Part shown: one piece after another, positions 6,338-12,300 of the stretch | How the letters are laid out: each line of letters opens with the position of its first letter | Position numbering within the stretch: position 1 is the first letter of the stretch | Origin: Gemmatimonadaceae bacterium | GTDB lineage: Bacteria > Gemmatimonadota > Gemmatimonadetes > Gemmatimonadales > Gemmatimonadaceae | Length of the DNA stretch: 64,000 nt | Assembly (NCBI GenBank): GCA_040901985.1 | Contig: JBBDYC010000006.1 | Span: forward strand, 58,379-122,378 | Direction of reading: 5' to 3' | Program-made: the position numbers

Positions 6338-9300
6338 CACGACCGCCACTCCGCGCCGAGGTCGTAGACGTACGGATACCGGGTGCCGTGCGCGGCCGCG
6401 ACCGGGTGGCCATCGCTCTGCAGCATCAACGCCGCGTCGCCGATGACGAGCCGCGCCGCGATCGTGCCGGCGGCGTCCGATTCCCCGCGCGCAATCGCGT
6501 CGGCCTCGGCGTCGCCGGGGACGAAGACCGGGCGCGCGTGCCACACGTGCTCGAAGAGGAGCTCGAGGAGATGCACGCTCGTCAGGGACGAGCGGCTCAC
6601 CAGGACGTGCTGACGCGACAGGTGCGCGGCGGGGACGGTGGAGAAGAGCATCACGCTCCGCACCGGTCCGTTGCTGGAGATCGCGAGGTCGGGCAGCAGG
6701 ATGTAGCGCGCCGAGTCGCGCGCATACTCGACGGCTGACACGACGCTGACGTCGAGCGCGCCCGCCGCCATCATCCGGTTGAGCGCGGTGGGCACGCCAT
6801 CCACGAGCGACGCGTCGAGGGGGATGATGCCGCGGTCCACGCCCCCGTAGACGGGGAAGCAGTTGATGTAGGGAATCCGGCCGACTCGGAGCATCAGGCG
6901 GCCTCGCGGTTGGCGTCGAAGACACGCAGCGTTCGGTAGAACGAGTCCCGCTCGGCGGGCACCTTCCCTGCCCCGCGGATCAGCGCGACGAGCTCGTCGA
7001 GCGACATCGCCTGCTGGGTCTGCGCGCCGACCGCGTGATAGATCTTCTCGCGGACGACGGTCCCCTCGAGGTCGTTCACACCGTAGTGCAGCGCAATCTG
7101 CGAGAGAAACGGCGTCACCATGATCCAGTGACTCTTGATGTGCGCGAAGTTGTCGAGAAAGAGGCGTCCCACCGCGAGGTTCTTCAGGTCGTCCACGCCG
7201 GAGGTGGCGATCCCCTGCCGGCCAAGCTTCCGCCCCAGCTCATTGTCGTCGGGGTGATAGGCGAGCGGGATGTAGGCGAGGAACCCGCCTGTCTCGTCCT
7301 GGAGGTCGCGGAGCGTCTGGAGGTGGTGCATCCGGTCGGCGAACGTCTCGACGTGGCCGTAGAGCATCGTGCTGTTGGTCCGGATGCCGAGTTGGTGCGC
7401 CGTGCGGTGGACGCCGATGTAATCCGCGGCGCCGAGCTTCTTGCGGGCGATCTCCTCGCGCACCGCCGCGCTGAAGGTCTCGGCGCCGCCGCCGGGCATC
7501 GTGTCGAGGCCGGCCTCCTTGAGCGCCATCAGGACGTCGGCCCACGATCGCTTCTCAATCCGGGCGATATGCGCGATCTCGACCGCCGTCAGCGCCTTGA
7601 TGTGCACGTGCGGCAACTCGGCCTTGAGGGCACGGAACATCGTCGTGTAGTAGTCGAGGCCGGCCTGCATATCGAGCCCGCCGACGATGTGGAACTCCTT
7701 CGTCAGGCCGTCCTTCGCCTGGGCGGCCTCGGCCATCACCTGGTCGAGCGAGTAGCGGTACGCCCCCGCCTCCTTGGGCAGCCGCGCGTACCCACAGAAG
7801 GTGCAGGTGGTCCGGAGCGTGCAGATGTTGGTCGGGTTGATGTGCTGGTTGGCGGCGAAGGTCACCACGTCGCCGTGGCGTGCGCGGTTGACCGCGTCGG
7901 CGAGGAGCCCGATGCCGGTCAGGTCGCGCGACTCGAAGAGCGTGACGCCGTCGGCGGTTGCCAGGCGCTCGCCCGCCGCGACCCGCTCGCCGATTGCCCG
8001 CACCGCCGGGTCAACGATGCGCTCGAAGGGGATCCGCAGCGCGCTCGTCGGCATACCCCTAGTCCGTGACGCGGCGGAGCGCGATGCTGACATTGTGGCC
8101 GCCGAAGCCCGAGGAGTTGGTAAGGGCCGCGTGCACCTCGCGCTTCACCGGGGTGTTCGCCGTGCAGTCGAGGTCGCACTCCGGGTCGGGCGTCGAGAGG
8201 TTGATCGTCGGCGGAATGATGCCGTGCCGGATCGCCATTGCCGTGAAGACCGCCTCCGCCCCGCCGGCCGCGCCAAGCATATGGCCGGTCGCCGACTTCG
8301 TGGAGCTGACGTTGAGCCCGGTGGCGTGCGCTCCGAAGACCTTCTTGATGGCCCGGATCTCGTTGGGGTCGTTCATCGGCGTCGAGGTGCCGTGGGCATT
8401 GACGTACTGCACGTCCGCCGGCTGGAGGCCGGCATCCTCGAGGGCGCGACGCATCGCGCGCTGGAGTCCCTCGTGATCCTCGGGCTGTCCGGTGAGATGG
8501 TAGGCGTCGCCGGTGGCGCCATAGCCGACCACTTCGCAGTAGATCTGCGCGCCGCGTCGCTTCGCGTGCCCGTACTCCTCAAGGATGACCGTTCCAGCGC
8601 CCTCCCCGAGGACAAAGCCGTCGCGCGTCTGGTCGAACGGCCGCGAGGCCGTCTCGGGAGACTCGTTGCGCGTGGAGAGCGCCTGCATGTTGCCGAACCC
8701 CCCGATCGCCATCGGCGCGACCGCCGCCTCGGATCCGCCGGCGATCATCACGTCGGCGTCGCCGTAGCTGATCATCCGGAACGCATCGCCGATGGCGTGG
8801 GCGCTCGTCGCGCAGGCCGACTGGGTGGCGTAGTTCGGCCCCTTCGCCTGGAAACGCATCGAGACCACGCCGGCCGCGATGTCGCCGATGAACATCGGCA
8901 CGAAGAAGGGGGAGATCCGGTTGGGGCCGCTCGTGAGGTAGGTCTCGACCTGGTGTTCGAAGGTCGCGATCCCGCCGATCCCCGACCCGATCACGACGCC
9001 GGTGCGGTGGGGGTCGAAGCCCTTCCCGTCGCCGAATCCGGCGTCGGTCATCGCCTGCACCGACGCGGCCATCGCGTACTGCGTGTAGAGATCCGAGCGC
9101 TTGACCTCCTTGCGATCCATATACGCCGTGGGGTCGAAGCCCTTGACCTCGCAGGCGAAGCGGACCTTGAAGGCCGCGGCGTCGAAGCGGGTGATGGGCC
9201 CGCCACCGGACTTGCCGGCGAGCAGTGCCGCCCAGGTGCCGGCCAGGTCGTTGCCGACAGGAGTGACGCAGCCGGCCCCGGTGATCACGACGCGGCGCTT

Positions 9301-12300
9301 CGGCGACGCCATCCGGTCAGCCGCCGATCTTGCCGTTCAAGTAGCCGATCGCATCGCCCACGGTGCGCAGCTTCTCCGCGTCCTCGTCCGGGATATCGAT
9401 GTTGAACTCCTTCTCGAACTCCATCACCAGCTCGACGATGTCGAGCGAGTCCGCGCCCAGATCCTCGATGAAGCTCGCGCCGTCAGTGAGCTTCTCGCGC
9501 TCGACTCCGAGCTCCTTCTCGATGATGTCCTTGACCTTCGCGGAATGGTCGGCCATGTGCGTAGGGACTCCGTAGGGGTGAGACCGCTTGAAGCAACCGG
9601 AAATATACGCCTTTGCAGGGGGCAAGGGCACACCGGAATGGCGCCTACATCACCATGCCGCCGTCCACCGTCAGGACCTGCCCGGTGATGTATGCCGCGT
9701 GGTCGGAAGCGAGGAAGGCGACCGCGCTCGCGACATCGCCCGGCGTGCCGAATCGGTCGAGCGGGATCTGCGCCGAGAGCGCCTTGACCGCGTCCGGCGG
9801 CATCGCGTCGGTCATATCGGTCCTGATGAACCCCGGGGCGACGACGTTGCACAGGATGTTGCGCGACGCGAGTTCCTTGGCCACCGACTTGCTGAGCCCG
9901 ATCAGCCCGGCCTTGCTCGCGGCATAGTTCGCCTGCCCGGCGTTCCCGACCATCCCGACGACCGACGCGATGTTGATGATCCGGCCCCACCGGCGCTTCA
10001 TCATCCCGCGCTGGGCGGCCCGGATGGCGACGAACGCCGAGCGGAGGTTCGTCTCGAGGACCGCGTTCCAGTCCTCGTCCTTCATCCGCAGCATCAGGTT
10101 GTCCTTGGTGATGCCGGCGTTGTTCACGAGGATGTCGAGCGACCCGAGGGCCTCCTCGACGCCCTGGACGAGCGCGGTCACCTCCTCCGGGACCCTGATG
10201 TCGCCGCCCGATCCGCGCGCCGCGCCGATCTCCCTGGCCACCTGCTCGGCCCTCGCGAGCTCACGGCCGACGACGACCACCGTCGCGCCGCAGCCGACGA
10301 GCGTCTCGGCGATTGCGCGACCGATGCCGCGGGTGGAGCCAGTGACGAGGGCCACCCTTCCGGAGAGATCGATCTTCATGGGACGGCGGATTGGAGATGG
10401 GAAATCAACGCTTCCACTTCACCGGCGGTCCCGCAGGTCATCGTCCGGCAGTCCGGGGCGAGGCGCTTCACGAGGCCGCTGAGCACCGCGCCCGGGCCCA
10501 TCTCGACGAAGGTCGTACCGGGGAAACGGGCGGCGATGTTGCGCACGACCTCCACCCAGCGCACCGGCGAGGTCAGTTGCCGGTGGAGGAGGTCCCTGGC
10601 CGTGCCAGCGTCGCCCACGGCCTCGGCGGTGACGTTGCTCCAGACCGGGACCAGCGGGTCGCGGAAGTGGGCGGCATCGAGGGCCTCCCGGAGGCCAGCG
10701 ACGGCCGGCGCCATCAGCGGGCTGTGAAAGGCGCCGCTCACCGGCAGGCGCAACGCGCGCTTGGCACCAGCCGCCTTGGCCAGTCCCATCGCCGACTCGA
10801 CGGCGGCGACCTCTCCGGAGATCACGATCTGCTCGGGCGTGTTGTAGTTCGCCGGCACCACCACCCCGTGGGCCGAGGCCTCGGCGCAGATCTCCTCGAT
10901 GGTCCGCTGCATCTCGCCGAGGATGGCCGCCATCGCGCCCGGGACCTGCACGCCGGTGTCGTACATCAGCTGGCCGCGGCGGCGCACAAGCGTCACCGCG
11001 TCCTCGAGCGAGAGCGCGCCCGCCGCGTGATGGGCCGAGAACTCCCCGAGCGAGTGGCCGGCGGCGGCACGGACGTTCGCGGCGACGTGCTCCTTGACCA
11101 CGGCCCAGACCGCAGCCCCGTGCGCGAGGAGCGCCGGCTGCGCGTTGTGCGTGCGCGTGAGTTCCTCGGCCGGCCCCTCGAAGCAGAGGGCGCTGAGGGG
11201 GGTGCCGAGGACGGCGTCGGCCCTGGCAAAGACGTCGCGCGCTGCGGGAAAGGCGGCGGCGATGTCCTTCCCCATGCCGGGCTTCTGGGAGCCCTGTCCG
11301 GGAAACAGGAGGATCACGCGCCGGCGCTCAGAAGCGCACCACCATCGAGCCCCAGGTGAACCCCGCGCCGAAGGCGACGAACATCGCCGTCGTGCCCTCC
11401 TTGATGACGCCCGTGGCGAGCGCCTCGCTGAGCGCGATCGGGATGGACGCCGCCGACGTGTTCCCGAAGCGGTCCACGTTCACATAGACCTTCTCCATCG
11501 GGATGTTGGCGTGCTTGGCCGTCGCCTCGATGATGCGGATGTTCGCCTGATGCGGGATCAGCACGTCAATGTCGGTGGCCGACAGCTTTGCGCCGTCGAG
11601 CGCCCGGTCGGCCGCCTCGGCCATCGAGCGGACCGCGTTCTTGAAGACCTCGCGGCCGGCCATCGTGAGGAGGTGCGTCCCCTCGGCGATGATTTCCGGC
11701 GTCATCGGCGCGGTCGCGCCGCCCTTCGGGCGATGCAACAGGTCAGCGAGCGTGCCATCGGAGCGCATATAGGCCGAGAGGATCCCGCGGCCCTTGGTGG
11801 CCTTCTTGATCACCGTCGCCCCGGCCCCGTCGCCGAAGAGCACGCAGGTGTTGCGATCCTTCCAGTTGACGATGCGACTGAGTAGCTCGCCGCCGATCAC
11901 GAGGATCGTCTCGTAGCCGCCGGTAGCCATCAGGCCCTCGGCCACCTGGATCGCGTAGAGCCACCCCGAGCAGGCGGCGTCAATGTCGAAGGCCACCGCG
12001 CGGGTCGCGCCGATCTCCGCCTGGACCTCGACCGCCGTCGCCGGCAGGAGTCGGTCCGGGCTCGCCGTGGCGAGAATGATTGCGTCGAGCTCGGCGGCGG
12101 TGACGCCCGCCTGAGCCATTGCACGCCGGGCCGCCTCGCTGGAGAGCGACGTGAGCGTCTCCCCCTCCCCGGCGATGTGGCGCTGGCCGATCCCGGTGCG
12201 CTCGCGGATCCATTCGTCCGACGTGTCGATCCCGATCGCGGCGAAATCGTGGTTCGTCATGATGCGCTTCGGCACCGCGTGCGCCGTGGCAGCGAGCATT

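Follow-up and report, generated by a model that had tools for sequence, protein, structure and literature searches.

Results

Gene content of the fabF-mqnE locus

The window, that is, the whole 64,000-nucleotide stretch of contig C6 (58379-122378) analyzed here, belongs to a Gemmatimonadaceae genome of 2.64 Mb that is 99.97% complete in 19 contigs. The genes around the position at which relatives carry rnc are all encoded on the minus strand:

4974..6251, minus strand: mqnC, open reading frame as listed (TIGR03699, 454.6 bits; cut-off, 428.1)
6022..6894, minus strand: mqnD-like gene of the VitK2_biosynth family, futalosine-pathway menaquinone synthesis (PF02621, 215.4 bits; no NCBIfam match at an E value of 1e-10)
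6894..8054, minus strand: mqnE, aminofutalosine synthase, radical SAM (Radical_SAM and CofH_C; TIGR03700, 439.9 bits, which passes the equivalog cut-off of 434.55 by a narrow margin; MqnC model lower, 349.5 bits)
8055..8058, minus strand: fabF/mqnE junction of 4 nt, the empty slot that holds rnc (~0.8 kb) in families f9 to f13 (see below)
8059..9312, minus strand: fabF, beta-ketoacyl-ACP synthase II (Pfam ketoacyl-synt and Ketoacyl-synt_C; TIGR03150, 607.7 bits; cut-off, 493.75)
9317..9631, minus strand: acpP (PF00550 at residues 32-98; the acyl carrier protein sits inside the open reading frame)
9645..10379, minus strand: fabG (adh_short_C2, 219.5 bits)
10376..11317, minus strand: fabD (Acyl_transf_1)
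11328..12317, minus strand: fabH (ACP_syn_III and ACP_syn_III_C)
12314..13411, minus strand: plsX (FA_synthesis, 304.8 bits)

The final gene of the plsX-fabHDG-acpP-fabF cluster is fabF, and its stop codon TAG (8061-8059) is separated by only 4 nt (8058-8055) from the ATG of mqnE at 8054; in rnc-bearing relatives, rnc comes directly after fabF. A preliminary description of this DNA had reported an rnc-less 4-bp junction between the two genes, and it was right in this as well as in its coordinates (6894-9322 in the window, with C6:66437 consistent with the window limits). Since the TIGR03699 match begins at residue 82, the mqnC open reading frame is over-extended at its 5' end, with a true start near 6010.

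Searches for RNase III and other ribonucleases

The same description had claimed that the genome is devoid of RNase III, and all models that we applied bear this out. PF14622 gave a sole match (16.3 bits; E = 0.016; C7:94168-94362), which lies inside hslU, at its C-terminal end, and was rejected as chance. PF00636, which did detect the B. subtilis control, had no match in the genome, and neither an RNase III nor a stand-alone domain (Mini-III) was detected with it. The dsrm model (PF00035) found nothing at E values up to 10, the best match of the third RNase III-clan model (PF11469) had 12.9 bits (E = 0.24), and a profile made from 7 RNase III proteins of the same phylum (A1; hmmsearch --max) reached at best 7.5 bits (E = 3.9) among the 39,156 six-frame open reading frames of the genome. 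Neither a catalytic domain with the motif ERLEFLGD nor a C-terminal dsRNA-binding motif, the marks of bacterial class 1 RNase III, was found in the genome. Judged by these homology searches, to which a dsRNase of other ancestry or of extreme divergence would be invisible, the genome lacks RNase III and Mini-III as well as dsRBD proteins.

Genes for RNase E/G (336 bits), RNase Y (688 bits), and YbeY (75.6 bits) are present, whereby these scores speak for gene presence only. A search of the genome for RNase J gave no match (19.1 bits compared to a cut-off of 400).

Distribution of rnc in the class and the phylum

The families compared are designated f1 to f13. Eight of them, f1 to f8, are families of the class to which the genome belongs, f1 to f3 inside the order Gemmatimonadales and f4 to f8 outside of it; f9 and f13 are other families of the same class, and f10 to f12 are families of other classes. 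Across the whole of f1 to f8, complete genomes included, no RNase III-family gene was found: PF14622 matched in 0/282 genomes, PF00636 in 0/281, and profile A1 in 1/371, that one judged noise. These samples overlap and hold many single-contig genomes, but most of the genomes compared are metagenome bins. The match treated as noise is to the dsRBD part of A1 in an 83%-complete bin (G420; 15.1 bits; E = 0.009).

Within the order, PF14622 matched in 1 of 201 genomes that are at least 90% complete. This lone match, an exception that the preliminary description had already pointed out, is probably contamination, because it lies on a 1.5-kb rnc-era contig and the fabF/mqnE junction of the same bin is empty. 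The claim that the order Gemmatimonadales is without rnc is therefore upheld, but the loss had been dated to the ancestor of the order, and it is older, f4 to f8 being without rnc as well. Across the phylum, PF14622 matched in 17/301 genomes, with 3/3 in f9, 8/9 in f10, 3/3 in f11, and 3/3 in f12; outside f1 to f8, profile A1 matched in 26/26 genomes of f9 and 2/3 of f13. In the RNase III proteins of these rnc-bearing relatives (f9 to f13), the ERLEFLGD motif is intact and a dsRBD is present. Within the class, only f9 and f13 keep rnc.

RNase Y was considered as a compensating gain and rejected, since it is found phylum-wide (149/151 genomes), also in the rnc-bearing families f10 to f12; the single f9 genome sampled had no match.

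Gene order before and after the loss

Directly 3' of fabF is where rnc was found in 10/10 rnc-bearing loci, just as had been proposed for the outgroups. Position behind the acyl-carrier/fab cluster is a trait that the rnc-bearing Gemmatimonadota share with B. subtilis, whose gene order we take to be fabD-fabG-acpA-rnc. A locus of f13 (L138) has fabF at 6464-7717, rnc at 7737-8531, and then MqnE; the arrangement fabF-rnc-mqnE-mqnC of f13 represents the exact "before" state of the deletion.

In 14 of 20 rnc-less representatives, mqnE follows directly after fabF (f1, 5/5; f2, 2/3; f3, 2/2; f4, 3/3; f5, 1/1; f6, 1/2; f7, 0/2; f8, 0/2). The junction is rearranged in all four loci of f7 and f8, and a shared scar is not visible there. 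The variant rnc-less loci retain genes from further along the cluster (ispF, purE, VTT/DedA, and xerC), and therefore, a later rearrangement fits. A branch of the FabF tree that has an SH-aLRT support of 97 sets all 21 rnc-less rows on one side. Family f10, although labelled as another class, adjoins the rnc-less clade with a support of only 83; since, in addition, this phylogeny is a single-gene tree, the branching order and the number of losses are insecure.

rRNA leader-trailer helices and hairpins

The rRNA operon is missing from the 19 contigs of the assembly; the helices were examined in relatives. Counting pairs after folding leader and trailer together did not discriminate, because shuffled sequences pair nearly as much; the longest ungapped run was the more useful statistic. 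In rnc-less relatives, the longest runs were 11, 16, 14, 28, and 16 bp for 16S rRNA and 14, 11, 20, and 18 bp for 23S rRNA, compared to 16 bp in the sole rnc-bearing relative. Seven of these nine runs (11-28 bp) exceed at least 95% of the shuffles, and the other two are no longer than shuffles give. The whole-duplex z-scores for 16S rRNA are weak in rnc-less relatives (-2.2 to +0.1) compared to -5.9 in the single rnc-bearing one. Leader-trailer helices persist in most of the rnc-less relatives examined.

The genome also has heptamer hairpins (C9:189894-190049). None of these lies in the window, whose long inverted repeats are only four imperfect palindromes of 21-31 nt. The preliminary description had conjectured that the loss of rnc may account for long perfect hairpins.

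Discussion

We consider it quite probable that rnc was lost by a single precise deletion in the ancestor of f1 to f8 and that rRNA has since been matured as in rnc mutants of E. coli. The gene would have been removed from between fabF and mqnE, and one ancient deletion is enough to account for the pattern, because all 21 rnc-less FabF sequences lie on one side of a well-supported branch. As far as they were sampled, the descendants, the genome described here included, have neither an RNase III-family enzyme nor a dsRBD protein. A clade without RNase III must mature its rRNA in some other way. For E. coli rnc mutants, PMC8782170 and PMC8708148 attribute the formation of the 16S ends to RNase E/G and YbeY together with exonucleases. 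By analogy, we infer that the rRNA precursors of the rnc-less clade, whose leader-trailer helices persist, are probably matured by RNase E/G, RNase Y, and YbeY, all single-strand-specific, together with exonucleases; trimming of the flanks would then need no cut through both strands. In that case, dsRNA from antisense transcripts and hairpins would escape clearance by a dedicated dsRNase.

Like laboratory rnc deletion mutants of E. coli and other bacteria, these organisms live without RNase III, and the genome likewise encodes RNase E/G and YbeY. However, each laboratory mutant is one engineered strain and shows defects in processing, whereas the loss described here is natural and apparently fixed across a large clade; furthermore, RNase Y is encoded in the genome, and RNase J is not detectable.

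The preliminary description had held an order-wide natural absence of RNase III to be new, but the clade is not the first of its kind among bacteria: Deinococcus and its relatives are already in print (PMC8708148 and PMC11404451). PMC8708148 and PMC8782170 describe RNase III in nearly all bacteria with Deinococcus as the named exception, and the former adds that the enzyme is dispensable in most bacteria tested. Thermus thermophilus and D. radiodurans were the only ones of our control panel of ten bacteria that were negative for PF00636/PF14622. The Deinococcota resemble the rnc-less Gemmatimonadota in that a whole lineage is without the RNase III domain and still has leader-trailer helices around its rRNA (PMC8708148 and PMC11404451). 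They differ in being another phylum with an independent loss, and D. radiodurans has a match in the PF00035 search, whereas the genome studied here has none. In the Gemmatimonadota described here, the deletion site and, with f13, its "before" state are both visible.

Archaea cut rRNA precursors at bulge-helix-bulge motifs by means of the splicing endonuclease. The likeness to Archaea is limited to the possession of leader-trailer helices without RNase III (PMC11404451 and PMC8708148).

A full-text literature search, judged in part by abstracts, brought up no paper that notes the RNase III gap in Gemmatimonadota, although the gap may stand uncommented in ortholog databases or heat-map figures. 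The supplement of PMC12641178 includes 3 Gemmatimonadota genomes; one of the papers found gives Gemmatimonadetes an RNase E/G size row only, and another mentions RNase III nowhere but in its reference list.

It is imaginable, but rather unlikely, that rnc was made dispensable by non-orthologous displacement, that is, by an unrecognized double-strand-specific endoribonuclease that is unrelated to RNase III or has diverged from it beyond recognition and that took over the cutting of leader-trailer helices and dsRNA. Such an enzyme would be invisible to homology searches, and perfect leader-trailer runs of 14-28 bp persist in most of the rnc-less relatives examined, the helices of Deinococcus being, by contrast, described as bulge-laden and weak (PMC11404451). 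With similarly low probability, most of the class may have kept long, nearly perfect helices because it relies on a double-strand-specific ribonuclease from a new, undescribed family or on a route coupled to a helicase. However, no candidate emerged from the searches with PF14622, PF00636, PF11469, dsrm, and the in-phylum profile, each of which was negative, and RNase Y is not specific to the clade. Nor is a replacement dsRNase required, because leader-trailer helices have RNase III-independent roles and E. coli without rnc is viable (PMC11404451 and PMC8708148).

Several independent losses within the class, instead of one ancestral deletion, appear still less likely. A gene other than mqnE follows fabF in the four loci of f7 and f8, in one of two loci of f6, and in one of three of f2, and the only tree is that of FabF. 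Against this, the rnc-less sequences all group together in that tree, so that one change is enough; the same fabF/mqnE junction recurs across f1 to f6, and the variant loci keep ispF, purE, VTT/DedA, and xerC from the same cluster. That rnc is present and was missed through incomplete assembly or binning is very improbable: the genome is fragmented and without its rRNA operon and most relatives are bins, but the assembly runs through the syntenic slot and shows only the 4-nt junction there, dozens of single-contig genomes of f1, f2, f6, and f7 are likewise without rnc, and equally fragmented bins of f9 to f13 nearly all have it, with single misses in f10 and f13.

These families represent a second RNase III-less bacterial clade, much larger than the Deinococcus exception and ecologically abundant in soil and water. 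As an independent experiment of nature, they can show what becomes of rRNA precursors and antisense dsRNA in cells that have no dsRNase, and since f13 and f9 keep rnc at the same site, clean comparisons and complementation are possible. Mechanisms that depend on RNase III, among them crRNA maturation guided by tracrRNA and the decay of antisense RNA, should be presumed here only with caution. If a new dsRNase family or a helicase-coupled route did exist, dsRNA surveillance in an abundant soil clade would run on uncharacterized machinery.

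The fabF-mqnE junction

In the window, mqnE follows directly on fabF, and no RNase III gene (rnc) lies between them. The genes around this junction are as follows.

2903-4000, minus strand: XerC/D-type tyrosine recombinase gene (Phage_integrase and SAM-like N domain)
4480-5709, over-extended mechanical ORF: ispF (YgbB domain confined to residues 253-406)
4974-6251, over-extended mechanical ORF: mqnC (TIGR03699, 454.6 bits; match from residue 82)
6022-6894, after mqnE: VitK2_biosynth gene
6894-8054, minus strand: mqnE, radical-SAM (NCBIfam TIGR03700, 439.9 bits; cut-off, 434.55)
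8059-9312, minus strand: fabF (NCBIfam TIGR03150, 607.7 bits)
Within 9317-9631, minus strand: acpP
9645-10379, minus strand: fabG
10376-11317, minus strand: fabD
11328-12317, minus strand: fabH
12314-13411, minus strand: plsX

The TAG stop codon of fabF occupies 8061-8059, and the ATG of mqnE is found at 8054, four bases on. The mechanical ORFs of ispF and mqnC begin too far upstream and overlap the adjacent genes; the real genes are shorter. The recombinase gene lies downstream of the mqn-ispF cluster, and a similar gene is present near fabF in locus L040 of genome G235 (family f7). The preliminary description had located the site correctly: the window corresponds to C6:58379-122378 (C6 being our handle for the contig), consistent with C6:66437 for fabF, and the attached conversion offset (subtract 29571) is wrong.

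Among the families sampled across the Gemmatimonadota (f1 to f13), f9 to f13 have rnc, and in 8 of 8 loci from f9 to f12 it stands immediately after fabF. It is followed by an MTAP-like phosphorylase gene and then purE, purB, and Sua5 in f9, by an acyl-CoA dehydrogenase gene and then mqnE in f10, and by an acyl-CoA dehydrogenase gene and then purE and/or Sua5 in f11 and f12. Both f13 loci read fabF-rnc-mqnE-mqnC-phosphorylase (MqnE of L138, 478.9 bits), with purB next in the one that was followed to that point; this is the arrangement of the window plus rnc. Compared with these loci, the rnc slot is empty here, reduced to a junction of 4 nt, as the preliminary description had stated. The site of the deletion can be seen, as can the state that preceded it. 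Fourteen of 20 rnc-less representatives have mqnE directly after fabF (f1, 5/5; f2, 2/3; f3, 2/2; f4, 3/3; f5, 1/1; f6, 1/2; f7, 0/2; f8, 0/2); in most of the six exceptions, the place is taken by unrelated inserts or by genes (ispF, purE, VTT/DedA, xerC) that belong further along this cluster. One such insert, in an f8 locus (L041 of G231, 4817-5895), comprises a 111-amino-acid ORF that matches no Pfam family and genes for a DUF3024 protein and a Phd/YefM antitoxin, right after fabF and in the place that mqnE takes in other families.

Absence of RNase III and its extent

Searches of the whole genome (99.97% complete) yielded no credible RNase III. PF14622 gave a single match of 16.3 bits (E = 0.016), which was rejected because it falls within hslU; PF00636 gave none, dsrm none up to E = 10, and PF11469 only 12.9 bits. 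A profile (A1) of seven RNase III proteins from rnc-bearing Gemmatimonadota, each with ERLEFLGD and a dsRBD, was run with every HMMER filter disabled against 39,156 six-frame ORFs and reached at best 7.5 bits (E = 3.9). PF00636 and PF14622 detected 8 of the 10 bacteria in a control panel and were silent only in Thermus thermophilus and Deinococcus radiodurans. Judged by homology, rnc is absent from this genome.

The same holds for its relatives. PF14622 matched 1 of 201 genomes of the order that are at least 90% complete and 17 of 301 in the phylum (f1 to f8, 0/282; f9, 3/3; f10, 8/9; f11, 3/3; f12, 3/3); the f10 miss, G215, is an assembly of 760 contigs in which a FabF match is also absent at a threshold of E = 1e-60. 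Within the class, A1 matched genomes at least 80% complete in f9 (26/26) and f13 (2/3), and among f1 to f8 (0/35, 0/86, 0/3, 0/14, 1/25, 0/98, 0/104, and 0/6) only once, with the dsRBD part of the profile in f5 (15.1 bits, E = 0.009). PF00636, which covers Mini-III too, was found in 0/281 genomes of f1 to f8, 18/18 of f9, and 1/1 of f13; the genome samples behind these three sets of counts share members, and related genomes do not count as independent. The tallies take in six genomes flagged unpublished (G064, G073, G188, G228, G335, and G336), and no claim depends solely on them. Many of the rnc-less genomes of f1, f2, f6, and f7 are single-contig assemblies.

The lone RNase III in the order (genome G021) is encoded on a contig of 1,521 bp and followed by an Era-type GTPase gene (MMR_HSR1), a rnc-era order unlike the fabF-rnc order of this phylum. 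It scores 178.8 bits against A1, under the values of f13 (215 to 224) and f9 (349 to 410). The same bin also includes contig C92, where mqnE starts 17 nt after fabF, and hence the native slot is empty there as well. The gene is likely a contamination; a recent transfer is possible.

The loss had been ascribed to the order Gemmatimonadales. Absence in the order, which comprises only f1 to f3, is borne out, but the order is not its limit: f4 to f8, which like f9 and f13 are labelled as the same class, are also devoid of rnc, and the loss thus spans 8 of the 10 sampled families of the class. It is a genuine and ancient absence that extends to nearly the whole class. In a single-gene FabF tree (31 rows, IQ-TREE quick search, LG+C20+F+G4), a branch with an SH-aLRT of 97 has all 21 rnc-less rows on the same side, and therefore one change of state is enough; f10 adjoins the rnc-less group with a support of only 83, contrary to its taxonomic label. 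A single loss would suffice, and judged by this tree the event was probably single.

Cas9 and hairpins

Type II CRISPR systems usually require RNase III. Across 301 genomes of the class, TIGR01865 matched a single full Cas9 (L139, G397:C27:5910-9014, f7; 1,056 amino acids, 550.8 bits), the remaining 23 matches being HNH fragments of 24 to 30 bits. No rnc was found in G397 (91% complete), to which the Cas9 contig was assigned by binning, possibly in error.

Heptamer-repeat hairpins, presumably the "heptamer hairpins" of the preliminary description, occur elsewhere in the genome and not within the window: (GGTGTCA)n faces its reverse complement in a perfect 48-bp stem at C9:189894-190049, and more are found at C1:72819-72888 and C4:131000-131055. 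A link between them and the loss of rnc is conjecture. Long G or C homopolymer runs beside N runs (C10:47015-47106, C19:3192-3225, and C2:4328-4359) are probably scaffolding or assembly artifacts.

rRNA maturation without RNase III

Matches of 336 bits for RNase E/G, 688 bits for RNase Y, and 75.6 bits for YbeY show that the genome encodes these three enzymes; RNase J, at 19.1 bits, was not detected. RNase Y as a clade-specific gain was rejected, since it occurs phylum-wide, in 149 of 151 genomes. No 23S rRNA was matched despite the completeness of 99.97%, indicating that the rRNA operon is unassembled, and the leader-trailer helices were therefore examined in five rnc-less relatives (G001, G031, G140, G219, and G218) and one rnc-bearing f9 genome (G334). 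In G001, G031, G140, and G219, the rRNA genes form 16S-23S-5S operons whose spacer of ~200 to 320 nt is free of tRNA genes; in G218 (L135, f6) and G334 (L136) the ~5 kb after the 16S gene contain no 23S or 5S gene, and the rRNA genes are apparently unlinked.

Minimum free energy folds gave leader-trailer helices in all six genomes. The longest ungapped 16S runs of the rnc-less genomes were 11, 16, 14, 28, and 16 bp, reached by 90, 7, 13, 0, and 0 of 300 shuffles, respectively, and that of G334 was 16 bp (2 of 300). The rnc-less 23S runs of 14, 11, 20, and 18 bp were reached by 6, 125, 0, and 0 of 300 shuffles. The z-scores of the whole 16S duplex were weak in the rnc-less genomes (−2.2 to +0.1, versus −5.9 in G334), and with one rnc-bearing comparator this contrast decides neither way. 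The predicted folds suggest that the helices have been kept though RNase III is gone, and several would be long enough to serve as its substrates. Two papers (PMC11404451 and PMC8708148) ascribe RNase III-independent roles in assembly to leader-trailer helices and describe the enzyme as dispensable in most bacteria tested. In the simplest reading, rRNA would be matured via single-strand cuts and exonucleases.

In the full-text literature pairing RNase III with Gemmatimonadetes, Gemmatimonadota, or Gemmatimonas, partly judged by title and abstract, we found no mention of its absence; the gap may be shown graphically in a 2011 survey figure (PMC3071783) or in the supplement of PMC12641178, which covers three Gemmatimonadota genomes. 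A natural RNase III knockout clade, proposed as new, is confirmed here with a wider scope, but it is not the first: Deinococcus and related organisms, with bulge-laden helices, are described in an earlier paper as naturally lacking the enzyme (PMC11404451, 2024). The Gemmatimonadota clade is a second example of a natural bacterial lineage without RNase III; it exceeds the first in size, and its helices are apparently better preserved.
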